A stretch of DNA of 64,000 nt from Candidatus Avelusimicrobium gallicola (GTDB taxonomy: Bacteria > Elusimicrobiota > Elusimicrobia > Elusimicrobiales > Elusimicrobiaceae). Positions 5,950-29,497 of this stretch are shown piece by piece (position 1 is the stretch's first letter; the number at the start of each line of letters is the position of its first letter). The position numbers were made by a program, and so were the translations under genes. The notes beneath the pieces are model-generated. The model saw only the letters and a list, made by a program, of their open reading frames with translations. It made no database searches and was not told the origin of the DNA. Where the stretch lies: assembly GCA_015062115.1 (NCBI GenBank), contig SUVG01000003.1, forward strand, positions 97,672 to 161,671, read 5' to 3'.

Positions 5950-7365
5950 TTACTTTTGATAACCCATACAGCAATTTCCCAACATACAATTTTTGCAATT
6001 GTAACTTTCGTGGTTTTCTTTTAAGGTCGCCAGCAGTTTGCGGGCAAAGTCCGTAAGGGTCGGGTCGCGTGCACCGAGAACCAGCAAGATGTCCCCCGGT
6101 TGGGCGGCTGCCGCCATTTGTGCCAATAATTTTTCGCGGCAATTATCGTAACTGACGGGAACGCCTCTTCCTTTTAACTTTTCATATACCGTTCGGCAAG
6201 AAACGCCCTCGGGGATTGTTCCTCCGGGGTAATATACTTCGGTCAGCCACAAATGGTCGTTCGGGCCGATATGTTTGGCAAAACTTTCCACAAATTCATT
6301 GGTCAACAGTTTGATAGAAGCAAACGCGTGCGGCTGGTAAAAAGCCAACACTCTTTTACCGCGCAGATGCGCGGCTTCAATGGTGGCACCCAGTTTGTGC
6401 GGATTGTGGGCAAAATCGTCGATTACTTCGATTTTATCGTAACTGCCGATGCTGGCAAATCTGCGGGCGATGCCTTGGAATTTATGCAACGCTTTGGCGC
6501 AGGTTTCTAAATCTACACCCAAGTGTAAAGCGGCGGCCACGGCGGCGGTAGCATTGGCTACATTGTGCACGCCCGGTACTTGTAAACGGAAGGGTTGGCC
6601 TTTAATGGTAAAGTCCGAACCGAAACCGTCCACTTTAATTTCGCTGGGGTGGATATCCCCCAAGGAAAGCCCAAAGGTTTGGGCATTGGGAGCAATAGAG
6701 CGGAGGTTTTCTTCTTCCGCATTTACCACGGCTGTTTGGCAGTGGGAAACAAACTCCTTAAAATATCCCTGTAAAATATCAATTTCTTTATGATCTTTCT
6801 GCAGGTTGAGGCATACGCCCAAATGCGGGTGATAGTTGACGATAGAGCCGTCGCTTTCGTCGGCTTCGATTACCAGAATATCAGAATTGCCTTTATACAC
6901 ATTTCCAAAAACACCTTGTTCGTTTTGCAGGGATAAAATAGCGGCTCCCGTGATGACGGAGGGGCTGAGCCCCGCAAAGGCCAAGATGTCGTACACCATG
7001 GCAGTGGTGGTACTTTTCCCGCTCGTGCCGGATACGGCCACCGTGCGGTGTTCGGCCACATGCTTGGCCAATAATTCCGAGCGGTGCAAAGTGGGGATTC
7101 CCAGTTCTTTTGCCTTCAAAAGTTCGGGGTTATCCTGTTCGATAGCGGAAGACAAAATGACCAAATCGGTTTTTTCGTCAATGCCGCTTCCGTCTTGCGG
7201 GAAGAGTTTGATATTTAATTTTTTAAGATAATCCCAAAGGGCCATATCCGTGTACCCTTTGCTGATTAACCGGTCGGAGCCGGTTACTTCGTCTTTTCCC
7301 ATGGCGTGCAGTTGCGCAAGGGCGCTCATGCCCACGCCGCCGATTCCAATAAAATGAATTTTCAT
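5950..7365 (-). CDS. murC: UDP-N-acetylmuramate--L-alanine ligase (MurC-type Mur ligase)
   Basis: Shows IHFIGIGGVGMSALAQ, a P-loop GTSGKSTTTAM, IEADESDGS and FQGIARRF, collinear with MurC. It also has an unusual Cys-rich tail, YNCKNCMLGNCCMGYQK. Confidence 0.7.
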   Translation of the reverse strand: MKIHFIGIGGVGMSALAQLHAMGKDEVTGSDRLISKGYTDMALWDYLKKLNIKLFPQDGSGIDEKTDLVILSSAIEQDNPELLKAKELGIPTLHRSELLAKHVAEHRTVAVSGTSGKSTTTAMVYDILAFAGLSPSVITGAAILSLQNEQGVFGNVYKGNSDILVIEADESDGSIVNYHPHLGVCLNLQKDHKEIDILQGYFKEFVSHCQTAVVNAEEENLRSIAPNAQTFGLSLGDIHPSEIKVDGFGSDFTIKGQPFRLQVPGVHNVANATAAVAAALHLGVDLETCAKALHKFQGIARRFASIGSYDKIEVIDDFAHNPHKLGATIEAAHLRGKRVLAFYQPHAFASIKLLTNEFVESFAKHIGPNDHLWLTEVYYPGGTIPEGVSCRTVYEKLKGRGVPVSYDNCREKLLAQMAAAAQPGDILLVLGARDPTLTDFARKLLATLKENHESYNCKNCMLGNCCMGYQK

Positions 7366-16736: not shown

Positions 16737-16833
16737 TAAAACCTCTTAGAAAATACTATAGAATCCCACATTAAGAGAATGAGGTAAGGCTTAACATTTC
16801 TATTATAACAAAATAAAATTGCTACAATAAACT

Positions 16834-17826
16834 ATGCGACAAAAAATAATTTCTTTTTTGACTCTTTGTTTGCTGGCCCTTCCTTTGGCGGGGCAAGTGA
16901 GTGTTATTTCTGTTACGGACGAGGACAAGCACTCCCGCAAAGAAGATTTTTACCATACTTTTGAGTATTATATCCTGCCTCTAAAGGGAGAGGATAGCAC
17001 TGCCGGTAAATGCCAGGCCACCCGTATCGGGCGGCGTTGGTTTGCCACGGCGGCGCACTGTGTGGAGAAAGCCTGTAAACAAGGCTGTACGATTCGCATG
17101 GATTTACTTGAGCAACCCGTTTCGGCCTTTGCCGAGGTTGTGCATACTCTCAAAAAGCCGGCGGTTTTTATACATCCGGCTTATACTTCTTCCCGATTTG
17201 TAAAGGATGACTTTGCCCTTATCCGCTTGGATTTGGACCGCACTTCACTTACCTATTACCGCCGTCCTACAGCCAAGCGGGCTTATAATTTGGCCATTTA
17301 TCCCGCCCAATTTAATGCCTTTTTGGAGCGCAACAAAAAGGCGGCCAGTCAGTGGCATCGTATCAAAAGTCCTTCGTTTCCTTCTCTTGTTTTGTTTGAT
17401 GAAGGGAATTATCTGCTCGACCGCAAACTGTCCGTCATTTCTATTTTTGACGGGAAACGCGATATCAAGAAAAACCCATACCCCGTACACTATGTTAAAA
17501 AATTGGGTTTTGCGTACACGCAGAATTTCGGTATTCGCAAAGGTATGAGCGGATCGGGCGTGATGACCAATACAGGGGAACTGGTAGGTATGATTTCGGC
17601 CAATGTGACGGTTTCTTCCAAGCAGGGCGAACAAGAAAAAGTGTCGGAGTTTTTTATGTTCCCTGTTTTTAATAAAAATATTTCATCGTTTATGGAAGAA
17701 ACGATGGGAAGCGATTTTTATAAATTGGATTGGAAAGATTGTTATCCTTCTTTTGTTCACAAGTCCCGCCGAAACTATGCGGATATTATTTCGGTTGTGG
17801 AACAGTCTAATTTGAAAAGCCGATAA
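16834..17826 (+). CDS. Secreted trypsin-fold (S1 family) serine protease
   Basis: It has a signal peptide (MRQKIISFLTLCLLALPLAGQ) and a catalytic-triad context: WFATAAHC (His), DFALIRLD (Asp), KGMSGSGVM (Ser). Confidence 0.7.
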   Translation: MRQKIISFLTLCLLALPLAGQVSVISVTDEDKHSRKEDFYHTFEYYILPLKGEDSTAGKCQATRIGRRWFATAAHCVEKACKQGCTIRMDLLEQPVSAFAEVVHTLKKPAVFIHPAYTSSRFVKDDFALIRLDLDRTSLTYYRRPTAKRAYNLAIYPAQFNAFLERNKKAASQWHRIKSPSFPSLVLFDEGNYLLDRKLSVISIFDGKRDIKKNPYPVHYVKKLGFAYTQNFGIRKGMSGSGVMTNTGELVGMISANVTVSSKQGEQEKVSEFFMFPVFNKNISSFMEETMGSDFYKLDWKDCYPSFVHKSRRNYADIISVVEQSNLKSR

Positions 17827-17858
17827 AAAACCCCGGGGATTTTCCCCGGGGTTTTTTT
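17825..17858. terminator. Bidirectional rho-independent terminator (protease / obg)
   Basis: AAAAAA-CCCCGGGG-ATTTT-CCCCGGGG-TTTTTTT. Confidence 0.8.
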
Positions 17859-19260
17859 ATTCTTCTTCTGTTTCGTCTAAAGAATCTTTTTTAGCCTGTC
17901 TGCGGGCTTTGCGTTTGGCTAAGCGCTCGGCCTTGGTGGTGCGCCGTTTATATCCGGCGTGTTCGGGCGTGGTGGGGGCTTCTTCGTCAAAGTCTCCGTT
18001 CCACTCAAATTCCCGTCCGCCTACAATCAGCGTATCTCCGTTTTCCACTCCGTATTTTAAGAGGGCTTTTTCCAGGCCGATTTTCTTAAAAATGCCGCGT
18101 AAACGGGCCACGGCTTCCGGTTGGCTGAAGTTCGTCATGGCGATAAATTCCACAATCTTTTTGCCGGAGATATGGATAATATCTTCCTCGTCGCGGGAAA
18201 TGGTAAAAATGGGTTCTATTTTGTGGGTAACGGCTGTTTTTTCTTCTACCACGGGCATTTCCACTGGGGTAGTAGCCAAAATTTTTACCACTTCATCAAG
18301 CACTTTGTTGATGCCCTCGCCGGTAGCGGCGGACATTAACAGTACTTTTTGCTTTTTGAATTTCTTTTTAATGGTTTCGTAGGCTTTTTGGGCAGCCGGC
18401 AAGTCCATTTTATTAACAACAATAATGCGCGGTTTTTCAAACAGTTTTTTATCGAAGGTTTTTAATTCCTTTTCGATTACTTTTACAGATTTTTCCGCAC
18501 TCATGCCGTCGAACCCATCGGGATCTACCAAATGGAGAAGCACGCGGGTGCGTTCAATGTGTTTAAGAAACTGATACCCAAGGCCTTTCCCTTCGCTGGC
18601 CCCTTCAATGATGCCGGGAATATCCGCCGTAGCAAAACTGATGCCTTTGTGAAGGGTAATACCCAAGTTCGGGTTTAAGGTTGTAAAAGGATAGTCCGCA
18701 ATACGCGGGCGTGCGGCAGAAATGCGACTTAAAAAGGTACTTTTGCCTGCGTTGGGAAAACCGACCAAGCCCAAATCTGCCAATACTTTTAATTCCAAAA
18801 TAAGCGTTACTTCTTCGCCGGGTTGTCCGTTTTCGGCGATGTGCGGAGCGGTATTATTGCGGGTTTTGAAAGATTGATTCCCTCTTCCGCCCATACCGCC
18901 GCGCGCTACCAAAAATTCTTGCCCGGGGTGGGTTAAGTCGGCAATGATTTGGCCGTCTCTTTTTACAATCGTTCCGCAAGGGACGAGAATATATCTATCC
19001 TCTCCGGCGCGGCCTGTTTTATTATAAGTGCCGCCTTTTTCGCCGTTTTGGGCTTCGATGTGCGGGTTGTAGGCAAGTTCCAATAAAGTGGTCAGGTTCG
19101 GCTCGGCTTTCAAAATAACATCGCCGCCTTTACCGCCGCAACCGCCGTTCGGGCCGCCGAATTCAATAAATTTTTCACGGCGGAAGGAAAGGCACCCGTC
19201 TCCGCCTTTTCCTGCGGTAATGTAGATTTTAACACGGTCTAAAAAACTTCCGGATTGCAT
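17857..19260 (-). CDS. obg: GTPase Obg/CgtA with a C-terminal OCT-like domain and a basic/acidic tail
   Basis: Shows FLDRVKIYITAGKGGDGCLSFRREKF..GGPNGGCGGKGGDV (the Obg fold) and a G domain with GFPNAGKST, DIPG and NKMD. Confidence 0.95.
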   Translation of the reverse strand: MQSGSFLDRVKIYITAGKGGDGCLSFRREKFIEFGGPNGGCGGKGGDVILKAEPNLTTLLELAYNPHIEAQNGEKGGTYNKTGRAGEDRYILVPCGTIVKRDGQIIADLTHPGQEFLVARGGMGGRGNQSFKTRNNTAPHIAENGQPGEEVTLILELKVLADLGLVGFPNAGKSTFLSRISAARPRIADYPFTTLNPNLGITLHKGISFATADIPGIIEGASEGKGLGYQFLKHIERTRVLLHLVDPDGFDGMSAEKSVKVIEKELKTFDKKLFEKPRIIVVNKMDLPAAQKAYETIKKKFKKQKVLLMSAATGEGINKVLDEVVKILATTPVEMPVVEEKTAVTHKIEPIFTISRDEEDIIHISGKKIVEFIAMTNFSQPEAVARLRGIFKKIGLEKALLKYGVENGDTLIVGGREFEWNGDFDEEAPTTPEHAGYKRRTTKAERLAKRKARRQAKKDSLDETEEE

Positions 19261-19283
19261 AAATAGAATTCCTTATTTGAAAA

Positions 19284-19439
19284 TCAAATTTTTTCGTCAG
19301 CTATTTCTTGGGCTAACAATTTTTTGGACAAACTGCGTTTGGCCTTCGTTCGCGCTCTTTTTACTTTGGTGCGGGCGGCGGACTTGGTGCAAGTGTAAAG
19401 CCACTCATCTTGTTTTACATGCAGTTCGTCTTTCTTCAT
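19284..19439 (-). CDS. Hypothetical small basic protein (51 aa)
   Basis: Manual translation gives MKKDELHVKQDEWLYTCTKSAARTKVKRARTKAKRSLSKKLLAQEIADEKI. TGCTACAAT lies 6 nt upstream of the ATG and there is no SD. I recognise no family. Confidence 0.25.
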   Translation of the reverse strand: MKKDELHVKQDEWLYTCTKSAARTKVKRARTKAKRSLSKKLLAQEIADEKI

Positions 19440-19493
19440 ACTTTAATTGTAGCAAACGGGCGGAATTTTGCCATTTCCTTTTTGGGTACACCA

Positions 19494-19528
19494 CAAAAAA
19501 AGCGGCAGGATTGCTCCTGCCGCTTTTT
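19494..19528. terminator. Bidirectional rho-independent terminator downstream of rpmA
   Basis: An A-run, then AGCGGCAGGA-TTGC-TCCTGCCGCT, then a T-run. Confidence 0.8.
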
Positions 19529-19542
19529 AAACTGTGAAGCTT

Positions 19543-19887
19543 TTATTTGTCCGCTTTGGCCGTTTTGGCTTTGGCAGGAGTTTTTTTAGCAGCGGCTTTT
19601 TTGGCCGGAGCTTTGGCTTCTTTGGTTTCCGCAACTTTGGGGTACACGGAAATTTGTTGTTTGCCTCTTCTTACCCATTCAAAGGTAACAATACCCGACA
19701 CGCGGGCGAAAAGGCTGTCGTCGCTGCTTCTGGAAACGTTGGTACCAGGCAAGAATTTGGTACCGCGTTGGCGGACGATGATTTCCCCAGCATTTACAAA
19801 CTGGGAGCCATAGCGTTTAATGCCTAAACGTTGGCCGTGGCTGTCTCTTCCGTTGGAGGAAGAACCTTGAGCTTTTGTATGTGCCAT
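19543..19887 (-). CDS. rpmA: 50S ribosomal protein L27 with a Lys/Ala-rich C-terminal extension
   Basis: Shows [27 protein letters not shown]...; the tail is [29 protein letters not shown]. Confidence 0.95.
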
Positions 19888-19902
19888 AGTTTAGTCTCCC
19901 AA

Positions 19903-20211
19903 TTAGAACTGGATATCCGTGATTTTAATTTGCGTTAAATCCTGTCTGTGGCCGATGGTTCTTTCGTAACCTTTTTTCGGTCTTTTTTTGAAGACGCGGA
20001 TTTTGGGACCTCTCAAATGTTTTACCACTTGAGCGGTGACCTTAGCCGTGTTAGCGGCTTTGGTATCTGCCGAGGTACCTTCTTCGTTAGCGGCCCAGAG
20101 AACTTTAAGTTCTACATTGGCACCGACTTCCGCTTCCAGTTTTTCAACCTGCAGATCTTGACCGGGTTTCACCCAGTACTGTTTTCCACCAGTTTCAATG
20201 ATTGCGTACAT
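19903..20211 (-). CDS. rplU: 50S ribosomal protein L21
   Basis: The start was reassigned to the ATG at 20211 (MYAIIETGGKQYWVKPGQDL). The 12 upstream codons of the track ORF are not L21-like. Confidence 0.93.
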   Translation of the reverse strand: MYAIIETGGKQYWVKPGQDLQVEKLEAEVGANVELKVLWAANEEGTSADTKAANTAKVTAQVVKHLRGPKIRVFKKRPKKGYERTIGHRQDLTQIKITDIQF

Positions 20212-20304
20212 AAGTTTATTATACCAAATAAAGAGACAACACCCCACACCCGTTCCCTTTCGGGCCGGGTGGAAGAGTGCAACTCTCCCTTAATTTGTAC
20301 ATAT

Positions 20305-20313
20305 ATTATAGCA
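20305..20313 (-). promoter_or_regulatory. Extended -10 promoter (TGCTATAAT) for rplU-rpmA
   Basis: The minus strand reads TGCTATAAT about 95 nt upstream of the rplU ATG. Confidence 0.45.
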
Positions 20314-20397
20314 TAAAAAAGCCCGCAGCGGGAGCCAATGTGCAGGGGAGGCCTAAAATTTCATAAAATATAACAAATAGAAATTTTATTTGGAATT

Positions 20398-21516
20398 ATG
20401 CCTACTAAGATGAAAGAAGATTATTATCAAACCCTTGGGGTGGAACGAAACGCCAGTGAAGCGGAAATAAAATCCGCCTTCCGCCGCCAAGCCATGAAAT
20501 ACCACCCGGATCGCAACCCCGGTAATAAAGAAGCGGAAGAGCAATTCAAAAAAGTAAATGAAGCTTTTTCCGTTCTTTCTGACCCGCAAAAAAAACAAAT
20601 GTACGACCAATACGGCCACGAAGGCATGAACGGCGCCGGCGGTTTCGGCGGGTTTAATGCGGGGGGCTTTGGCGATATCAACGATATTTTCGGCTCAGTT
20701 TTCGGGGATATTTTCGGCGGAGGTTTCGGTGGGGCCCGTGCCCGCGGTGGGGCTCCCCGCGCACAACGCGGTGAAGATTTGAAAATGGATGTAACCCTTA
20801 CCTTGGAAGAAGCCTTTATGGGCAAAGAAGTTCCCGTAGAATATACCCGCTTGGATAACTGCTCCGAGTGCGACGGTACCGGGGCCGCTCCGGGAAGCGC
20901 TCGCAAGACTTGCCGTTCTTGTAACGGGACGGGCACGGTTACCTATTCCCAAGGATTTTTCAGCATGCGTCAAGTCTGCCCCGATTGCGGAGGCCGCGGG
21001 AGCGTGGTGGAAAAACCGTGTTCGGCCTGTCGCGGAAGCGGCACCAAACGCGTGAAGGAAAATATTACGGTAAAAATTCCTTCCGGGGTACGCAGCGGAA
21101 TTACGCTGCGCGTATCTAACGGCGGGGATATCGGTACGAACGGCGGCGGCTTTGGCGATTTGTATGTGGAAGTGCGCGTAAAAGAACATAAAATTTTCCG
21201 ACGGGAAGGGGATAATTTGGCCCTGGATGCGCAGATTTCCTACCCGCAGGCTGTATTAGGCGGGAGCATTAAAGTTCCCACGATTGAAGGTAAAGAAGTG
21301 GAACTTGATATCCCGAAAGGCACCCAGTTCGGCTCCGTGCTTAAAATGCAAGGTAACGGTATGCCGAAATTGGGCAAAAAAGGTTTTGGTGATTTGCTTG
21401 TGAATATTCAAATCGAGGTTCCCAAAAAGCCGACGGCACGCCAAAAAGAACTGCTGGAAGAACTTGCCAAAGAAACCGGCGGTAAAAAAAGTTTTTTCAA
21501 AGAGTTATTTTCTTAA
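20398..21516 (+). CDS. dnaJ: Molecular chaperone DnaJ
   Basis: It has a J domain (YHPDRNPG), a G/F-rich region, and four CxxCxGxG zinc motifs ([32 protein letters not shown]). Confidence 0.97.
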
Positions 21517-21549
21517 AAACTTTTATTATCTTTCTCTTGACGGACCGCC
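21454..21549 (+). repeat. Direct repeat copy A: the last 20 codons plus stop of dnaJ, and the 24-mer TTATCTTTCTCTTGACGGACCGCC
   Basis: 21454-21516 encodes [20 protein letters not shown]. 21526-21549 is identical to 22899-22922. Confidence 0.85.
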
Positions 21550-21690
21550 AAGAATAAAAGAAACATACATTTACAATGTTTATTAGACAAAGAAACAAGC
21601 GACTTGTTAAAAGATTTTGCCGCTACACACGGCACTAGCAAAAATGAAGTAGTGATCCAAGCTATAAGAAAATTTATAAATGAGTATTAA
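21541..21690 (+). pseudogene. Ribbon-helix-helix (CopG/Arc/MetJ-like) domain frame lacking a canonical start codon
   Basis: The open frame after the TGA at 21538 reads RTAKNKRNIHLQCLLDKETSDLLKDFAATHGTSKNEVVIQAIRKFINEY*. It follows a strand-helix-helix pattern. There is no ATG, GTG or TTG upstream of the predicted strand. Confidence 0.4.
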
Positions 21691-21738
21691 ACCGTTTTTT
21701 ACCGGTACTTAAATTAAGGAAATAACAAAATAGAAACT

Positions 21739-21912
21739 ATGAAAAATTTAATATCTTGGATTTCTGGCGGTATAGTTATAGCGATTTTTTTAGGCCTTAT
21801 TATAAACGAATTATATAGGATAACTGATGACAAGAAAAAGACCAGCAAAGAAAAGGTGATACTTATTTTGGTTGTTATGGTTTGTATTTTATTTACTTTT
21901 TTTTGGAAGTAA
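21739..21912 (+). CDS. Small two-TM membrane protein (57 aa)
   Basis: Manual translation gives MKNLISWISGGIVIAIFLGLIINELYRITDDKKKTSKEKVILILVVMVCILFTFFWK. It is below the ORF-track cut-off. Confidence 0.4.
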   Translation: MKNLISWISGGIVIAIFLGLIINELYRITDDKKKTSKEKVILILVVMVCILFTFFWK

Positions 21913-21970
21913 TGTGTTAGGATATAGAAAATGCGAGAAGTACAAAAATTAAAATAGTTAGTGTTAAAGT

Positions 21971-22186
21971 ATGATAGAAGATCTTTTTAACTTTATAGAT
22001 GAACTATACGCAAGTAATAACGGGGTTAAAGTATTTTGTGCTAACATTATTCTTTTGATTTTATCCCTTATAGAGGTGGTTATTGCATATTTCCTATTAA
22101 AGACAATAGGAACTCCCATTTTGAGAATTATTGTTTTGGTTTTTTTTGCTTTTCTTATTTGGAAAACAACTGGGAAAAAAAGATAA
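21971..22186 (+). CDS. Small two-TM membrane protein (71 aa) with a basic tail
   Basis: MIEDLFNFIDELY...ANIILLILSLIEVVIAYFLL...ILRIIVLVFFAFLIWKTTGKKR. Confidence 0.45.
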   Translation: MIEDLFNFIDELYASNNGVKVFCANIILLILSLIEVVIAYFLLKTIGTPILRIIVLVFFAFLIWKTTGKKR

Positions 22187-22198
22187 ATAAAAATAACT

Positions 22199-22384
22199 AT
22201 GAAAGATTTTTTAGAAGATATGAAAGGTTTTTTATTTGGCCTAGGGGTTTTGGCTATTTATGTAATATGCCTTGCTATTATTGACCAACTCCCAAGACTT
22301 ATTATAGCAATATGGCCTATAATTTTTATCGGCTTGATATTTGCTCCTTTATTTTTGAAAGACGAAAAGAAAGATAAAAAGTAG
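22199..22384 (+). CDS. Small two-TM membrane protein (61 aa) with a Lys-rich tail
   Basis: MKDFLEDMKGFLFGLGVLAIYVICLAII...LIIAIWPIIFIGLIFAPLFLKDEKKDKK. Confidence 0.45.
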   Translation: MKDFLEDMKGFLFGLGVLAIYVICLAIIDQLPRLIIAIWPIIFIGLIFAPLFLKDEKKDKK

Positions 22385-22664
22385 GAAATAAAACAGATAT
22401 AGCCTATTACGGGCTAAATTAAATAAAAGACCCAGTAAATGAAGTTAAATAAAGTTAAGATCCCGCCAATGTGTGGGGCCTTTTTTTGTGCATACCCCCC
22501 GCCCCCCTAATTTATCTAAATAATATCTAAACTTACTGATACAAAAGAAGCCCGGAAAAGTCTTGTTTATGATGTAAATTTGCTTTGGAATACAAGTATA
22601 AGATTTAAGAACGGGGATAAGATCCGCTTATTAGGTAAAACAAACGAAAAAGAATTATACAGCC

Positions 22665-22853
22665 GTGGCTTTGCCACAATACAGCAAGTCGGTAAATAAA
22701 TCTCGTGCCGCACAGGCACTCCCTGTTATCAAGTCTTTAATGCAAGCCGTGGAAGTTTATTTTATGGCTAATGGGACTGCCCCCGAAAGTTTGGAAGAGC
22801 TGGCTAAAGAAACGGGCGGTAAAAAAAGTTTCTTTAAAGAACTTTTTTCCTGA
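22665..22853 (+). pseudogene. Chimeric remnant: a 5'-truncated type IV pilin-like fragment fused in frame to a displaced copy of the dnaJ C-terminus
   Basis: AVALPQYSKSVNKSRAAQALPVIKSLMQAVEVYFMANGTAPES aligns with residues of about 22-65 of the intact pilins (AVALPQYTRAVEKSRATQAM..VYYLANGTYA), but the FTLIELLVV leader is missing. The remainder, [20 protein letters not shown], equals the dnaJ end. Confidence 0.7.
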
Positions 22854-22922
22854 AAATCAAAAAGTTTTTAAAACGGCGTTTTAGGACGCCGTTTTTTGTT
22901 ATCTTTCTCTTGACGGACCGCC
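22791..22922 (+). repeat. Direct repeat copy B: the dnaJ-tail coding sequence (synonymously diverged), a terminator, and an identical 24-mer
   Basis: 22791-22853 versus 21454-21516: I count 12 mismatches in 63 nt, all synonymous (stop TGA versus TAA). The 24-mer at 22899-22922 is exact. Confidence 0.85.
22873..22897 (+). terminator. Rho-independent terminator after the displaced dnaJ tail
   Basis: ACGGCGT-TTTAGG-ACGCCGT followed by TTTTT. It is absent from copy A. Confidence 0.75.
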
Positions 22923-22969
22923 CCTATATAAAGCACAATACAAATATATGCTTTTTAGAGGGGAAAATT

Positions 22970-23677
22970 ATGAAACGCAGTTTACTTCTTTTAGCCGTTT
23001 GTGCCTTGTCTTCTGCCGTCTATGCGCAGAGCGGGGCGGAACAATATACGCGCGAGCAGGTGTTGGAAGTTTTTTCCAATTATAATCCTGTCGTGCTGGA
23101 AAACGCCAAAAACAACGAGAATTACGAAGCCGTTTTGGAAGCCTTCATTTCTTCTTACGATAAACCGGTTACGGCGCAAAACCGCTTTGAACTTATTGCC
23201 GTAGCACGCAACTTCGATAATTCCTTACTGCTTCGCCTGTGGGAAAATTCCTATAAAGAAACCTTGTCCATGGGTTCCTATGCCGGGACGAATATTTCCG
23301 CGCAAAAGCAAACAGCCCGCCAAGATTTGCTCCTTATTTTCGGAAGAATCTGGGCCAACTCCGTCCAACTTCGCGAAATGCAACTGCAGGAAGCAAAAGA
23401 AACCTTAAAGAAAACTCGCAAAGACAAAACGATTTCCAAATCGCTTAAACAGGAAAAAACGGATTTTCTGAAAGATGAAATTGCCGACCTGAAAAGCGAA
23501 ATAAAAGCCCTTCGCAAAAATCCGGGTGAGCAAATCCAGCAAATTACGGATAGTTATATGGCTCAACTGGAGCAGGAAGTGGCCGCTGCTTTTTCTTCCC
23601 GCAAAACCGAGGAAGAATCCTCTCAAACGGAAAACTTGCAAGTAAAAACCAACCACAAAAAACCCGTTGCCAAATAA
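22970..23677 (+). CDS. Secreted coiled-coil protein, function unknown (235 aa)
   Basis: The start was reassigned to the ATG at 22970 (MKRSLLLLAVCALSSAVYAQSG signal peptide), preceded by GAGGGGA. The C-terminal half is charged and heptad-like. Confidence 0.6.
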   Translation: MKRSLLLLAVCALSSAVYAQSGAEQYTREQVLEVFSNYNPVVLENAKNNENYEAVLEAFISSYDKPVTAQNRFELIAVARNFDNSLLLRLWENSYKETLSMGSYAGTNISAQKQTARQDLLLIFGRIWANSVQLREMQLQEAKETLKKTRKDKTISKSLKQEKTDFLKDEIADLKSEIKALRKNPGEQIQQITDSYMAQLEQEVAAAFSSRKTEEESSQTENLQVKTNHKKPVAK

Positions 23678-23738
23678 AATAGGTTTTGTTTTTCACTCGT
23701 AGTTTTACCCTATTTTATTTTTGAGGATTGTATTTATT

Positions 23739-26333
23739 ATGATAAGAACTGCTATAGACAAAATTTTTGGAACCAAAAGCGAACGCGACCTAAAAAAAAT
23801 TCAACATTATGTAGATTCGGCCAATAAATTTACAGCCGAATTTGAACCTCTTACAGACGAACAATTAAAAGCCAAAACCCAAGAATTCAAAAACCGCTTG
23901 CAAGCCGGTGAAACGCTAAACGATATTTTGCCGGAAGCCTTTGCCGTGGTGCGCTTGGCGGCCCAACGCGTAATCGGGCTTCGCCCGTATGATGTACAAA
24001 TGCTGGGCGGTATTGTGCTTCACCAAGGGAAAATTTCCGAAATGGGCACCGGGGAAGGGAAAACCTTGGTTGCCGTGTTGCCCTCTTACCTAAATGCCCT
24101 TACCGGCAAAGGTGTACATGTGGTAACGGTGAACGACTACCTCGCCCGCCGCGATCGCCAATGGATGGGCCCTATTCACGAATTTCTGGGCCTTACCGTC
24201 GGTTATATTAACCACGATATGAACAGTGCAGAACGCCGCGAAATGTATGCCAAAGATATTACCTATGTTACTAACAATGAATTGGGTTTTGATTACCTGC
24301 GCGATAACATGGTAGTGTCTCGGGAAGAACGCGTGCTTCGCCCGCTTAACTACTGTATCGTGGACGAAGTGGACTCTATTTTAATCGACGAGGCCCGCAC
24401 CCCGCTTATTATTTCCGGCCCGTCCGACCAAAGCACCGACAAATACTATGTGGTCAACCGTTTGATTCCTGCTTTGAAGATTCGTTTAATTACAGAAAAA
24501 GACGAAGTCCGCGCCAAATACGAAGGCGTTAAGTTGGAAGACGGCGTGGATGCGGTTATCGACGAAAAAGCCCACACGGCTACACTTACCGATACAGGTA
24601 TTGCCAAGGCAGAAAAATTTTTGAACGTTCCCAACCTCTACAATGATGTGGAATCGGAATGGGTACACCACATTAACCAAGCCTTGCGCGCGCATCACTT
24701 GTACGAACGCGATGTGGATTATGTGGTAAAAGATGGGGAAGTGGTAATCGTGGACGAATTTACCGGTCGCTTGATGCCGGGCCGCCGCTGGAGTGACGGT
24801 TTGCACCAAGCCGTGGAAGCCAAAGAAGGGTTACAAATTAAAGAAGAAAACCAAACCCTGGCCACCATTACTTTCCAAAACTTCTTTAAGTTATACAACA
24901 AACTTTCCGGTATGACGGGTACCGCCATGACGGAAGCCAACGAATTTTGGCAAATCTATAAATTAGATGTGGTGGAAATCCGCCCGAATCGTCCTTCTAA
25001 ACGCAAAGATTTTTCGGACTTGGTTTACCTGAGTGAACGCGAAAAGTTTGCCGCCATTGTGGACGAGGTGGAAACCTTGTGGAAACAAGGGGCTCCCGTC
25101 TTGGTGGGCACGCGCTCTATTGAAAAGTCGGAAAAACTGAGCCATATGCTCCGCGCAAAAGGGATTCCCCATAAAGTATTAAACGCCAAATATCACGAAA
25201 TGGAAGCCCAAATCATCAGCCAAGCCGGGCGTAAAGGAGCGGTAACTATCGCTACCAACATGGCCGGGCGCGGTACGGATATTGTGCTGGGCGGCAACCC
25301 GGCCGACCCGAAGGAGCAGGAAGAAGTCGTCAATTTGGGGGGGCTTCATGTAATCGGTAGCGAACGCCACGAATCTCGCCGTATTGATAATCAATTGCGC
25401 GGCCGTTGTGCGCGCCAAGGAGACCCCGGTTGCTCCCGTTTCTATATTTCGTTGGACGATGAATTGATGCGTTTGTTTGCCAACACTACCAAAATTGCCT
25501 CTATTTTAAGCACTATGGGTATGAAGGAAGGCGAAGCGATTGAATCTCGCTTGATGACCCGTCAAATTGAAGGGGCCCAACGCATGGTGGAAGGACGCAA
25601 CTTCGATATCCGCAAACAACTGCTGGACTACGATAAAGTAATGAACCAGCAACGCACGGCTATCTACGGATTGCGTAATGCCATTTTAGACGGCGAAAAT
25701 ATGACTGAAAAGTCCGTCCAAATGATGGAAGAAGTGATAGACGATTTGGTAGAACAATACTATCACCCGTCTCATCCGCAACGCTCGGACTTTGATACCC
25801 TAAACATCAACTTGCGCAATTTCTTCCCGGCGGAATTTGCCTATACGGCTGAAAATGTGGGCCGTAAGTCGCAAGAGGCTTTGGCCGATGAAATTATCGC
25901 CAAAGTAAAAGATTTATACCAAGAACGCGTGCGTTATTTTACCGAACAAGGCATCAATTTCTCCGAAATCGAAAGAATGCTGTTGTTGCAATTGTTGGAT
26001 AGCGCATGGAAACAAAACTTGTACGAACTTGACCAACTGCAAAGCAGTGTCAGCCTGCGCGGTTATGCTCAAAAAGACCCGTTGATTGAATACCAAAAAG
26101 AATCGTACAAACTCTACTCTTCTATGTTAAATCGCGTGCGCGATTTGATGGTAAGTTATATTTTCCGCCTCCAGTTGCCTCCCCGCCGCACCGCGGCCGA
26201 ACGGGCGCAAGAGGCCGCCGCCAAAAACCCGGACAATAAAGGTAAGCCGCTTACCAAAACCATTGGCCGTAACGACCCTTGTCCGTGCGGAAGCGGGAAA
26301 AAGTATAAAAAATGCTGTGGAGCAAATTTATGA
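23739..26333 (+). CDS. secA: Preprotein translocase ATPase SecA
   Basis: Shows MIRTAIDKIFGTKSERDLKK, Walker A MGTGEGKTLV, DEVDSILIDEARTPLIISG, and the C-terminal zinc motif CPCGSGKKYKKCCG. The TTG at 23721 in the track is a less likely start. Confidence 0.97.
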   Translation: MIRTAIDKIFGTKSERDLKKIQHYVDSANKFTAEFEPLTDEQLKAKTQEFKNRLQAGETLNDILPEAFAVVRLAAQRVIGLRPYDVQMLGGIVLHQGKISEMGTGEGKTLVAVLPSYLNALTGKGVHVVTVNDYLARRDRQWMGPIHEFLGLTVGYINHDMNSAERREMYAKDITYVTNNELGFDYLRDNMVVSREERVLRPLNYCIVDEVDSILIDEARTPLIISGPSDQSTDKYYVVNRLIPALKIRLITEKDEVRAKYEGVKLEDGVDAVIDEKAHTATLTDTGIAKAEKFLNVPNLYNDVESEWVHHINQALRAHHLYERDVDYVVKDGEVVIVDEFTGRLMPGRRWSDGLHQAVEAKEGLQIKEENQTLATITFQNFFKLYNKLSGMTGTAMTEANEFWQIYKLDVVEIRPNRPSKRKDFSDLVYLSEREKFAAIVDEVETLWKQGAPVLVGTRSIEKSEKLSHMLRAKGIPHKVLNAKYHEMEAQIISQAGRKGAVTIATNMAGRGTDIVLGGNPADPKEQEEVVNLGGLHVIGSERHESRRIDNQLRGRCARQGDPGCSRFYISLDDELMRLFANTTKIASILSTMGMKEGEAIESRLMTRQIEGAQRMVEGRNFDIRKQLLDYDKVMNQQRTAIYGLRNAILDGENMTEKSVQMMEEVIDDLVEQYYHPSHPQRSDFDTLNINLRNFFPAEFAYTAENVGRKSQEALADEIIAKVKDLYQERVRYFTEQGINFSEIERMLLLQLLDSAWKQNLYELDQLQSSVSLRGYAQKDPLIEYQKESYKLYSSMLNRVRDLMVSYIFRLQLPPRRTAAERAQEAAAKNPDNKGKPLTKTIGRNDPCPCGSGKKYKKCCGANL

Positions 26334-26749
26334 AAAATAAAATAAAAGCAGTCTTATACTTGTTAAGTGCGGTGGGTGTACTCGCTTTGGTGCCCGTATT
26401 CCTTTCCAAAGATGCTCCGATTGAGGTGGTTATCCCCAGTTTGAGTTTGCAGGAAATGAACGCCCAGGAAGCCAAACAAAAAGAACAAGCTACCCGTGCC
26501 GTAGTGCGTCGTATGTATCGTTGCGAAGTGGACGAAGATTGCATCATCGTGGACAAAGACCCGTGCGGTTGTTGGGCCGGCCCGTCCGGCGTAACGGCTA
26601 TCAATGTGGGATATACGCTTGAGTTCAATAAAATGAACGAAAAATCTTTGGCTAAAGCATGCCCGGATACGGCCCCCTCTACGGAAAAAGAATGTAGCCC
26701 TTCCGCTCATGCCGTTTGCAAATCAAAAGTTTGCCGCATTGCCTATTAG
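26330..26749 (+). CDS. Membrane-anchored or secreted Cys-rich protein, function unknown (139 aa)
   Basis: Its ATG overlaps the secA stop (ATGA). It starts MKNKIKAVLYLLSAVGVLALVPVFL and has a C-terminal domain with 8 Cys (CEVDEDC...PCGC...ACP...EC...VCKSKVC). Confidence 0.55.
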   Translation: MKNKIKAVLYLLSAVGVLALVPVFLSKDAPIEVVIPSLSLQEMNAQEAKQKEQATRAVVRRMYRCEVDEDCIIVDKDPCGCWAGPSGVTAINVGYTLEFNKMNEKSLAKACPDTAPSTEKECSPSAHAVCKSKVCRIAY

Positions 26750-26757
26750 TTTAAGAT

Positions 26758-28386
26758 ATGCGTCCGTTTCGCCAACGAATTTCCGACCAGGATAAACAGT
26801 CCAAAACGCCCTTTTCCGTTCATATGAAAAAATTCTTGCGAACGGTAGGGCGTTGGCTGTTTTTGTTGTTGTGTGCGTTGGGAACGGCTGCGTTGGTGGT
26901 AGTAAGTTATCCCAAATACTCCCACTCCTTTTTGGCTTGGTTGGCACTTGCGCCGTTTGTATGGGGGATTACCAAAACCCGTGGCTTTTGGTCTTCCTTT
27001 TTTTATAGTTGGCTCACCGGTATCCTTTTCAATGCCGGTGTTTTTTATTGGATTTATTACACCTGCTTACACGGAGGGGGGCTCTCCCAAGGATTATCTT
27101 TGGCCGCTTGGTTAGGGCTCAGCGGCCTTTTGGCATTACAGTTCGCTTGCTTCGGCGGCAGTTGTTTTTATTTAAGAAATTCCAAAGGATATTTCCCTCT
27201 TCTTGCGGCTTGCGGTTTTGTTACTTGGGAGTGGTTACACCAACTTCTTGCGTTTTATGGGTTGGGGTTTCCGTGGCTTATGTTGGGTTACACTCAATGG
27301 AACGCTCCGGAGTTTATCCAACTGGCCTCTTTTACCGGGGTTTATGGTGTTAGTTTTATAGTAGCGTTTACCGGGGCCAGTATCGGTTGGGCTTTTGCCG
27401 AACCCAGTATCAAGCGGGCTACGACGCATATGCTCTTGGCTGCCGCCGTCTTTTTGGGAACTTTCATGTACGGGCATTTCTCCCTTCCCGATGAAAAAGA
27501 CCCGTCCTCCCGCCAATCTTTGTTAAGCCTTTCAACCGCGGTGTTGCAACCTAATATCGACCAATACAAAAAATGGAACGAAACTTTTGAAAAAGAAATT
27601 TTGGATACCATTACCTCCATGGGTAACGAATTGGAAGGCAAGGGCGTAATGCTTGCCGTTTGGCCGGAAAGCACCGTTCCCGGAACCTTGACGGAAGAGA
27701 AATATAAGCAGTTATTTGCGGGTATTTCTGCCCGTTCCGGAGCCCACCAATTGATAGGTTCCAATATCCCGCAGGCTACTTGGCAGTATGTGGGAAGTTA
27801 TTTGATGAGCCCCGAACAAGAAAAACTGCAGGATTACCGCAAGGTAAAACTGGTTCCTTTCGGGGAATATATCCCGCTGGAAGATTTTGTTAAATCTCTT
27901 TTTCCCGATGTGGCTATTTTGGGTGAACTCGGCTCCTTTACGCCCGGAAATCGCGAGCAAAATTTATTGAATTTGGCCGGCGTTCCCTTGGGTTCTACCA
28001 TTTGTTACGAATCTATTTTCCCGCAGTTGTGGTTAGCGCAAAACCGCCAAGGGGCTAAGTTATTTGTAAACTCCACTAACGATGCTTGGTTTTTTGATAC
28101 GGCCGCTCCGTATCAGCATTTGGCGGTAAATGTTTTACGCGCGGCAGAGACGAGCCGCCCGGTCTTGCGCGCGGCGAATACGGGCTTTTCCGCCGTGATA
28201 GATTCTTATGGCCGTATTACGCAGAAAACGGATCTTTTTACGAGGGATACTTTGTTTGCATCCGTCCCGCTTTCTACGGGAGATTCGGTTAATTTTTACA
28301 CCCAATGGGGGGAGTGGTTTGCCTGGGTGTGTGCGATTTTATATTTTACTTTGTTAATCTCTTTAATGGTTTTTTTCTATGAATAA
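26758..28386 (+). CDS. lnt: Apolipoprotein N-acyltransferase
   Basis: It has a polytopic N-terminal domain plus a CN-hydrolase domain ([14 protein letters not shown]). An alternative start lies at 26824 (MKKFLRTVG). Confidence 0.9.
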
Positions 28387-29497
28387 TATTGAATTCAAAG
28401 ATGTAGAACAAAAAGTAGCGGAGCTGGCCGCCCGCGTTGCCAAAATTGAAACGATTGATGATATCCCCGGTAAAAAAGCAGAACTTGCCAAGCTGGAAAA
28501 AGAATCTGCCGACCCTTCTTTTTGGAACGATACCAAAAAAGCAAAAGAGGTCAGCCGGCAAATCGATTTTTTGAAAACCGCCATAGAAACCTTTTATGCG
28601 CTTCGCAAAAAAACGGACGATGACCAGGCTCTTTTTGAACTCTGCAAAGAAATGCAGGACGAAAGCGAACTGGCCGCGTTAGCGGAATCTTTGCAGGAAA
28701 CGGAACGACAGGTGGAAAAGAAGGAAGGCGAAATCCGTTTGTCGGAACCGAACGACAAATTAAATGCTATTTTAACGATTCACGCCGGAGCGGGCGGGAC
28801 GGAATCTTGCGATTGGGCACAGATGCTCGTGCGTATGTACACGCGCTGGGCCGAACAACACGGTTTCAACTTTTCCGTGCTGGACGCACAACCCGGTGAT
28901 GAAGCCGGCATCAAAACTTTATCCGCCATGGTGGAAGGGCCCTTTGCGTATGGCTATTTGAAAGGCGAAAACGGCGTTCACCGTTTGGTGCGCGTTTCTC
29001 CTTTTGATGCCAATGCCCGCCGCCACACTTCGTTTGCTTCGTGCGATGTTTTGCCGGACATTGATGAAGATATTAATATTGAAATTCCGGAAAAGGATAT
29101 TCAGTTGGAAACTTCCCGTGCCGGCGGCCACGGCGGCCAAAACGTAAACAAAGTGGAATCGGCCGTGCGTTTGTTGCATATTCCCACGGGGATAGTGGTT
29201 TCCTGCCGCATTGAGCGCAGCCAGTTGCAAAACCGTCAAACGGCTATGAAGATGCTAAAGGCCAAACTCTACGAAATGGAAATGGATAAAAAGCGCAGTG
29301 AAGCCGAAAAACGCTACGGTCAAAAAGGGGAAATCGCATGGGGGCATCAAATCCGTTCGTATGTGTTTATGCCTTATCAGTTGGTGAAAGATTTGCGCAG
29401 CGGGCATGAAACTTCCCAAATCAACGCCGTAATGGACGGAGATTTGGATCCGTTCATTTTTGCCTTTTTGAATCACGAAGCCGAAAATAAAAAATAA
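28379..29497 (+). CDS. prfB: Peptide chain release factor 2 (uninterrupted reading frame)
   Basis: It has the SPF tripeptide ([15 protein letters not shown]) and the GGQ motif ([18 protein letters not shown]). A full-length N-terminus is present in a single frame. Confidence 0.93.

Follow-up and report, generated by a model that had tools for sequence, protein, structure and literature searches.

The DNA examined here is a 64,000-nt stretch of contig SUVG01000003.1 from Candidatus Avelusimicrobium gallicola, referred to throughout as the window, in which the 3' end of dnaJ is present twice, once on the gene itself and once about 1.3 kb downstream, beyond an A+T-rich insert. We read this duplication as the footprint of recombination-driven gene transfer, acting through homology and microhomology, into the spacer between dnaJ and a gene for a 235-aa protein, rather than as an attL/attR pair made by a dedicated recombinase, and we give this reading a probability of roughly 0.55. 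Some strains of this gut Elusimicrobium carry the 1.37-kb insert and others are without it. All features described below lie on the forward (+) strand, and positions are those of the window unless another contig is named.

Two dnaJ Tails of Different Origin

The dnaJ gene (20398–21516) is intact and was assigned, by Pfam analysis and nucleotide comparison with relatives, to the allele resident in this species, here called species A. Its product, identical in contigs L001–L010, matches the Pfam families DnaJ, DnaJ_CXXCXGXG and DnaJ_C. At the nucleotide level the gene is 1 nt apart from that of L003, 1–12 nt from those of L003, L001 and L008, and 175 nt from that of the sister species L020; as a set, L001–L010 show 98.9–99.8% identity to the window over positions 20300–21527.

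The last 20 codons and the TAA stop of this gene (21454–21516, the proximal tail) recur at 22791–22853 (the distal tail), as had been described in a first-pass annotation made from the sequence without database searches. The two tails encode the same 20 residues and a stop codon, and differ at 12 of 63 nt, distributed over 11 codons. Alignment of both copies agrees with the earlier count in that all 12 differences are synonymous, the stop codons (TAA vs. TGA) included, while in a simulation none of 200,000 sets of 12 random substitutions preserved the tail peptide.

To place the distal tail, a DnaJ scan of the GTDB species representatives was used, which gave 77 Elusimicrobiaceae loci. One of these, L020, belongs to a sister species, called species B. 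Positions 7057–7188 of L020, comprising its own dnaJ tail, terminator and a 24-nt motif (the 24-mer), match positions 22791–22922 of the window at 131 of 132 nt, and the distal tail is part of this match. Over the whole of dnaJ the two sequences are 84% identical at the nucleotide level and 98% in protein, over the dnaJ-side flank (16782–21519) 86% at the nucleotide level, and over the downstream flank (22776–28852) 80%, with the 235-aa protein at 69%. L020 itself has an empty site. Judged by these comparisons, the distal tail is the end of another species' dnaJ ortholog, apparently carried in by recombination, and the synonymous divergence of the tails is shown, at the level of sequence, to be orthologous divergence between two species. 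The differences are all synonymous because the tails are orthologs from two species, each having been under purifying selection as a real dnaJ end. The suggestions that both tails evolved as functional gene ends, and that neither is a recent tandem copy of the other, are thereby upheld, given that the distal copy is 131/132 identical to a true dnaJ end, terminator and 24-mer.

No second dnaJ tail was found in other species among the 77 loci, and only in species A and B is dnaJ followed in synteny by the 235-aa gene and secA. For the other 75 or so Elusimicrobiaceae species (L021–L096), synteny is broken directly after dnaJ. The idea that dnaJ 3' ends form an integration hotspot throughout the family was rejected on these two grounds.

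Empty Site and Resident Allele

Relatives of the window were identified by exact look-up of the DnaJ protein, which returned many contigs from other gut metagenomes and metagenome-assembled genomes (MAGs). Nine contigs with an identical DnaJ (L001–L007, L009 and L010) have the empty site, with dnaJ followed by a spacer of ~116 nt, the 235-aa gene and secA. The order of dnaJ, terminator, 24-mer and secreted-protein gene, which the first-pass annotation had proposed to look for, is thus present in nine contigs. The spacer reads, from the dnaJ stop codon, AAACTTTTAT, a strong terminator, the 24-mer and then CCTATATAAAG, and the 24-mer could be located at the empty site of L002–L007, L009 and L010.

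The proximal tail of the window has no differences from the empty-site tails of L001–L005 and L007, one from that of L010, two from that of L009 and three from that of L006, and it is on this comparison that it was assigned to the resident allele. The only change at the proximal copy, when compared to the empty-site strains, is the loss of the terminator: a native segment of 35 nt is missing at 21525|21526, leaving the start of the resident 3' untranslated region (UTR) at 21517–21525 (by comparison with L003 7117–7190). In the empty site this segment is bounded by direct repeats of TTTTAT, which is a classic slippage context. The native terminator has a predicted folding energy of −16.0 kcal/mol (z −6.2), whereas terminator scanning and folding found none between the dnaJ stop codon and the insert of the window. 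The distal tail is followed by the 3' UTR of the sister species (22854–22898, identical to L020), in which the same scan and fold place an intrinsic terminator at 22870–22895 (−14.5 kcal/mol, z −3.6); the observation that only the distal copy keeps a terminator was therefore correct. By sequence comparison, then, the copy attached to dnaJ is the resident allele minus a 35-nt terminator deletion. As the insert begins only beyond the 24-mer, at 33 nt from the stop codon, the gene itself has never been interrupted.

These findings run contrary to two expectations of the original att-like interpretation. It had been supposed that an element integrated into the 3' end of dnaJ and supplied a replacement end, in which case the native end would be displaced distally. 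Instead, the gene-attached tail is identical to that of empty-site strains, and the distal tail is the foreign one: it comes from another species, rather than being the native end moved aside, and is fused in frame to part of the interior of a pilin gene.

Exchange between the two alleles is also seen at this position in other strains. The dnaJ tails of the empty-site strain L006 (7057–7119) and of L008 are mosaics of the synonymous variants of species A and B, which indicates recurrent recombination in this short segment. The tail of L009 differs at two of the A/B variant positions, one of them being B-like.

The occupied site was found in independent assemblies. Its left junction recurs in five JGI contigs (L011, L012, L015, L017 and L019) and one ENA contig (L016), and its right junction in L011 and L012. 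Over the aligned stretch L011, L016 and L017 are 100% identical to the window and the other junction contigs at least 99.9%. An assembly artifact, which the first-pass annotation had named as a possible refutation, was ruled out by this recurrence.

The 24-mer and the Conserved Promoter Block

The 24-mer, TTATCTTTCTCTTGACGGACCGCC, follows each of the two tails exactly, as had been reported. It occurs precisely twice in the window, at 21526–21549 and 22899–22922, even when three mismatches are allowed, while none is expected from shuffled sequences. The insert thus has an identical direct repeat resembling an att core at both of its ends. The proximal copy contains a TTGACG hexamer resembling a −35 element. 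In the distal copy, position 22919 has the base of species A (C) and not the A found in L020.

Beyond the 24-mer, 39% of random 70-mers from the insert match equally well, which puts any further similarity at chance level; the repeat therefore ends at 21549 and 22922. The possibility that the repeat reaches past the 24-mer as a diverged copy of the promoter was rejected, as similarity of this level is expected by chance for A+T-rich sequence.

The 24-mer is the longest exact identity, and the only long one in this region, and it opens a 62-nt promoter block with a single mismatch between species A and B. This block (window 22899–22960; L003 7164–7225; L020 7165–7226) consists of the 24-mer together with the −10 and 5' UTR region of the 235-aa gene, and a pattern scan found a promoter-like TTGACG-18-CACAAT at 22910–22939. 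It is an unusually conserved regulatory element, the flanking genes of both species being only 69–98% identical in protein. After the distal 24-mer, the resident promoter and 5' UTR (22923–22969) and the gene of the 235-aa signal-peptide protein (22970–23677) were delimited by comparison with the empty-site strains, to which 22923–23677, excluding the foreign tail, is ~99% identical.

The change from B-like to A-like sequence falls within 22899–22958 and so inside the 62-nt block. With flanking genes only 80–86% identical between the two species and the block nearly invariant, the latter is the best place available to a homologous crossover between them.

Joints Within the 1373-nt Unit

The unit that is added relative to the empty site spans 21550–22922 (1373 nt) and consists of an A+T-rich cassette, a 138-nt pilin piece, 108 nt of species-B dnaJ end and terminator, and the 24-mer. 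The pilin piece (22660–22798) is an internal fragment, approximately codons 24–69, of a type IV pilin gene (N_methyl domain), having neither the 5' nor the 3' end of the gene. It was recognized by its match to the full-length pilin genes of L008 and L102, to which it is 97% identical over 22660–22806 and 99% (130/131) over 22660–22790, and it carries a private Ser codon (AGC).

The fragment meets the foreign dnaJ tail at TTTGGAAGA (22790–22798), an illegitimate joint defined by alignment of the window with L020, L003, L008 and L018. These 9 nt are common to the pilin gene and species-B dnaJ, while 7 nt are shared with species-A dnaJ. The joint creates an in-frame fusion, a chimeric open reading frame (ORF) of 62 aa (22665–22853) made up of the pilin fragment and the C-terminal 20 aa of DnaJ, which is probably non-functional. 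At the joint between cassette and pilin fragment (22660) only CA (2 nt) is held in common, and that between the proximal 24-mer and the cassette is blunt. Joints that are blunt or placed at microhomologies are marks of illegitimate recombination. A classical attL/attR scar fits poorly with such a patchwork of truncated pieces, and also with contig L018, which shows the same pilin::dnaJ joint with a resident-type tail.

Other Forms in Public Data

The form seen in the window is also that of L011, L012 and others. In L018 the cassette and pilin fragment are followed by TGGAAGA, a resident-type dnaJ tail, the native terminator, the 24-mer and the 235-aa gene, so that one illegitimate pilin::dnaJ joint occurs with two different tail alleles. 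This form argues against a single fixed crossover position, although later gene conversion could also explain it.

A further form is found in L014 (1–1438; JGI 3300018494, Ga0187911_10474157), which is an exact rotation of 21550–22922, with 1373 nt and 0 mismatches. The first and last 65 nt of this contig are identical, giving a closed cycle with no link to chromosomal flanks, while sister samples of the same project assemble the chromosomal left junction. L014 is either an excised circle or at least two tandem copies, both of which would give the same contig. It carries the species-A form of the 24-mer (ACCGCC) and therefore probably stems from a chromosomal copy by exchange between the two 24-mers. 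A junction of the sort that the first-pass annotation had suggested searching for is thus present, in a form that a circle and a tandem copy would both give.

In two ENA contigs, L013 (1–1840; ERZ27248314) and L101 (1–912; ERZ27248436), the cassette and pilin fragment run into a full pilin 3' end and an acyl-CoA dehydrogenase (ACAD) gene. The pilin gene of these contigs is a hybrid, its 5' part being of the window type with the private Ser codon and its 3' part being the native metG-pilin-ACAD allele present in the same samples, and the two parts join through an 80-nt identical stretch. With the pilin gene a hybrid, we rejected the ancestral site as the simplest reading of these contigs; they are read as a secondary recombinant, an inversion via 80–138 nt of pilin homology, or an assembly chimera.

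Finally, L008 (7120–8000; GCA_045645445.1, JAZRIU010000001.1) has a complete type IV pilin module, consisting of a promoter and a 170-aa gene, in the spacer that corresponds to window 21517–22970. The module has the dnaJ terminator on one side and the left edge of the 24-mer on the other, and is 89% identical to the metG-pilin-ACAD copy. As it is separate from the insert of the window, there have been at least two independent insertions in this spacer, one at each edge of the 24-mer.

Proposed Sequence of Events

The pilin::dnaJ joint would have been made by illegitimate recombination against species-B DNA, and the unit would then have reached the species-A chromosome, or been completed there, through a crossover within the 24-mer/promoter block. 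Two routes would fit: a circular or tandem copy may have integrated by a single crossover of the Campbell type, or homology-facilitated illegitimate recombination (HFIR) anchored in the 62-nt promoter block may have taken place; either route would place the 24-mer on both sides and strand the foreign dnaJ tail downstream. Later, the resident terminator would have been lost by a 35-nt slippage deletion between the TTTTAT repeats, the outcome of which is visible in the window.

Features of both routes are present. For Campbell integration these are hybrid direct repeats flanking the insert, with the resident tail and 24-mer on the proximal side and the foreign tail and terminator, together with the resident-type base at 22919, on the distal side. 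For HFIR they are an anchor of high homology at one end, with the allele switch within 22899–22958, and a microhomology at the other, TTTGGAAGA, which the pilin gene has in common with species-B dnaJ. Single-crossover integration with experimental duplications of 109–950 bp has been documented (PMC3240628), as has HFIR (PMC3240628; de Vries and Wackernagel, 2002, and Prudhomme et al., 2002, as cited in PMC5361080), and HFIR has been proposed as a model for displaced 3' gene ends in type VI secretion system (T6SS)/Rhs loci (PMC5361080). Type IV pilin-like genes are present here, from which competence cannot be inferred.

The L018 form may have arisen by a crossover or heteroduplex extending as far as TGGAAGA, where the homology stops on the left, or by gene conversion from a proximal copy that still had its terminator. 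Such a tail swap can be produced by homology-driven exchange or conversion and is not expected of a fixed-site recombinase.

With the upstream terminator lost, transcription of dnaJ, and that from the duplicated 24-mer with its −35-like hexamer, would read into the co-oriented genes of the cassette, which are predicted from this arrangement to be probably transcribed by dnaJ read-through.

The A+T-Rich Cassette

The cassette (21550–22659) was delimited as foreign by its composition (29% GC) and by having no homolog in related loci. The DNA between the tails is A+T-rich, as had been remarked, with the insert at 25–30% GC vs. ~46% for the window.

At its left end is an Arc/CopG-like ribbon-helix-helix (RHH) frame (21541–21690) with no ATG, GTG or TTG start, which matches a phrog_3887 transcriptional regulator (2e-5) and an Arc-like repressor (1e-4), with weak Pfam and NCBIfam matches to antitoxin-type RHH proteins. 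The frame is open up to the 24-mer, and has either lost its 5' end at the 24-mer|cassette junction or starts at a rare codon, for instance ATA at 21565. No homolog was found in a search with this frame. It is followed by three proteins, each with two hydrophobic segments, of 57 aa (21739–21912), 71 aa (21971–22186) and 61 aa (22199–22384). The first and last of these, taken from the ORF list and hydropathy, are orphans. None of the three proteins scored above threshold in PADLOC, NCBIfam or Pfam, and it was rejected that they are paralogs of one another as they share no significant similarity. A terminator-like hairpin and T-run (22461–22486), found by pattern scan, may close the cassette operon, although it is weak, folding no better than shuffled sequences (z −0.7).

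Searches for the origin of the cassette were for the most part negative. No homolog of it was found in the 77 related dnaJ loci or elsewhere in the window, BLASTN in distant mode gave no match in phage and plasmid collections, and an exact 32-mer scan of metagenome_contigs and viral_contigs returned 0 matches. When the 71-aa protein was used to search viral and metagenome contigs for related loci, no match was confirmed, and with the same query a HMMER search of 1.84 billion representative proteins returned only the query itself, which is listed at NCBI as a hypothetical protein of an Elusimicrobium sp. MAG. An Rfam scan of 20000–24000 gave nothing significant.

The sole diverged relative of the 71-aa protein is P0002, with 74% identity in protein and 86% in DNA, including 40 nt upstream. 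It is encoded on L100 (1–3093; Logan SRR29277958), a contig of 33% GC with a partial tyrosine integrase, an HTH_17 excisionase-like gene, small membrane proteins and a lipoprotein. The P0002 gene adjoins the tyrosine integrase and the HTH_17 gene, and L100 is probably part of an integrative element. This context hints at a similar source for the cassette, which probably comes from a mobile element.

Alternative Explanations

The explanation that best survives next to recombination-driven transfer is a decayed or non-autonomous integrative element, similar to a cis-mobilizable element (CIME), in which the 24-mer serves as att core and its two flanking copies as attL and attR, the 1373-nt unit is excised and integrated by a tyrosine or serine recombinase whose gene lies elsewhere, and the species-B dnaJ tail is an attP arm kept from a former host. 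We consider this unlikely, while recognizing that a number of observations agree with it. The unit lies between exact direct repeats of 24 nt, excision as a circle would yield the circular permutation that L014 exactly represents, and in L008 the edge of this 24-mer has received another insertion, independent of the first. In addition, the cargo, an Arc-like repressor and small membrane proteins, resembles the accessory genes of phages and mobile elements, and its only homolog outside the locus, that of the 71-aa protein, lies beside a tyrosine integrase and HTH_17 gene on the A+T-rich L100. When the integrase of L100 was used as a query, however, no homolog was found in the 64-kb window or the 77 related dnaJ loci, in agreement with the earlier statement that no integrase is present, as far as this one query covers it. 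The 24-mer has no obvious inverted-repeat core when read by eye and has not been found elsewhere, and no dnaJ-tail duplication was found in other species. The interior of the unit is pieced together at microhomologies from truncated fragments, one of them from a host pilin gene, and the allele on dnaJ is the resident one. A resident tail in the distal position, as in L018, is not predicted by a crossover fixed at the 24-mer. The proposal of a decayed element or of a small cassette mobilized in trans keeps some standing, and is not the best-supported reading of the locus.

A less probable explanation still is a 1.37-kb cassette without any recombinase, which exists as a circle or amplifiable tandem array and re-enters the chromosome by host recombination, its captured dnaJ tail and promoter block acting as a homology address that also lets it cross between sister species. 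L014, a closed 1373-nt rotation without chromosomal flanks from a project in which sister samples assemble the left junction, is what such a form would give. Species-B flanking DNA within a species-A genome would be accounted for, and Campbell crossovers would explain the window form if placed at the right end of the homology, and the L018 form if placed at its left end. Nonetheless, the unit has no replication gene or recognizable origin, L014 is the single contig of its kind, and its species-A 24-mer (ACCGCC) means that it may stem from a chromosomal copy by unequal exchange. In its strongest version, the unit would be an active hitch-hiker, cycling between chromosome and circle or tandem array via the 24-mer and crossing species by its homology address, with the loss of the terminator plugging the membrane-protein genes into dnaJ (heat-shock) transcription; we regard this as doubtful.

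Local tandem duplication of the dnaJ end with divergence in place, or misassembly at a repeat, could in principle produce direct repeats around 1.3 kb, but is refuted by the 131/132 match of the distal copy to the dnaJ end of another species, by the fact that a non-functional copy would not gather only synonymous changes, and by the recurrence of the arrangement at 99.9–100% identity in JGI, ENA and NCBI assemblies.

A number of points weigh against recombination-driven transfer. The 24 nt of identity lie at the lower limit for a RecA-type crossover. No species-B genome carrying the unit was found. The rotation in L014 implies abundant exchange between 24-mers, or a multi-copy circle or array, in that sample, and a site-specific system or selected amplification fits an abundant form of this kind better than rare homologous exchange does. 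The integrase test that speaks for this reading rests on one query protein and on only 64 kb of this genome. Furthermore, a single pilin::dnaJ joint with two tail alleles, in the window and in L018, needs an additional conversion or a second independent joint, and recombination-driven transfer does not account for the sequence in which the events took place or for how the 24-mer|cassette junction arose.

Relation to Known Systems

Under the preferred reading, the locus is a new example of a known event, the recombination-mediated acquisition of DNA with hitch-hiking orthologous sequence. As in HFIR, foreign DNA has been fixed beside a conserved anchor, the 62-nt block, with the other end at a 9-nt microhomology (TTTGGAAGA) and with transfer between related species. 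It differs from HFIR in that the segment homologous to the recipient is duplicated here and not deleted, and in that at least three non-homologous joints are present, so that more than one event is needed. The resemblance to Campbell integration lies in the homologous segment standing as direct repeats around the insert, in the circularly permuted form L014, and in that alternative crossover positions would give both the window-type and the L018-type arrangements. Unlike in that process, exact identity extends over only 24 nt within ~132 nt at 80%, and the circle would be one without a visible replicon or selectable function.

The CIMEs of the Streptococcus thermophilus ICESt1/ICESt3 family are decayed elements inserted in the 3' end of a gene. 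Shared with them are a duplicated gene 3' end around a strain-specific insert, short exact direct repeats, the failure to find a recombinase inside, and a possible circular form. The present locus departs from them in that the copy on the gene is the resident one, the stop codon precedes the insert, host gene fragments are joined at microhomologies inside it, and no cognate integrase or parent element was found (with one integrase query, in the window and the 77 loci). In the C-terminal displacement at Rhs/T6SS effector loci (PMC5361080 and references therein), DNA anchored in a conserved region likewise strands a readable 3' gene end downstream; the displaced end is resident there and tied to an immunity gene, while the one stranded here is foreign and has no apparent function.

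Integron cassettes are also small units (here ~1.4 kb) without a recombinase, possibly circular, and placed just downstream of a promoter-like element. Here there are four reading frames together with gene fragments and no array. No attC-like features were seen in a repeat search of 19000–25000 or in the Rfam scan of 20000–24000, and no attC, IntI or attI was seen, no dedicated search for these having been run.

The locus is an unusually legible natural record of how foreign DNA can become established between essential genes when no dedicated recombinase takes part. Its joints are all readable, from the 9-nt microhomology and the blunt joint to a crossover in an island of 24 nt of identity, and public metagenomes complete the comparison, with the empty site, a donor allele from the sister species and a number of intermediate or derived arrangements. 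For annotators, it serves as a caution that a gene-end duplication that is identical in protein and synonymously diverged need not be an att site, and may be an orthologous fragment from another species. A circular or tandem form that proved abundant and under regulation would make the locus a model, in an uncultured gut phylum, of how cassettes can move by homology addressing; failing that, it is an instructive and fairly ordinary strain-specific scar of horizontal gene transfer, in which L014 is the one unusual feature.

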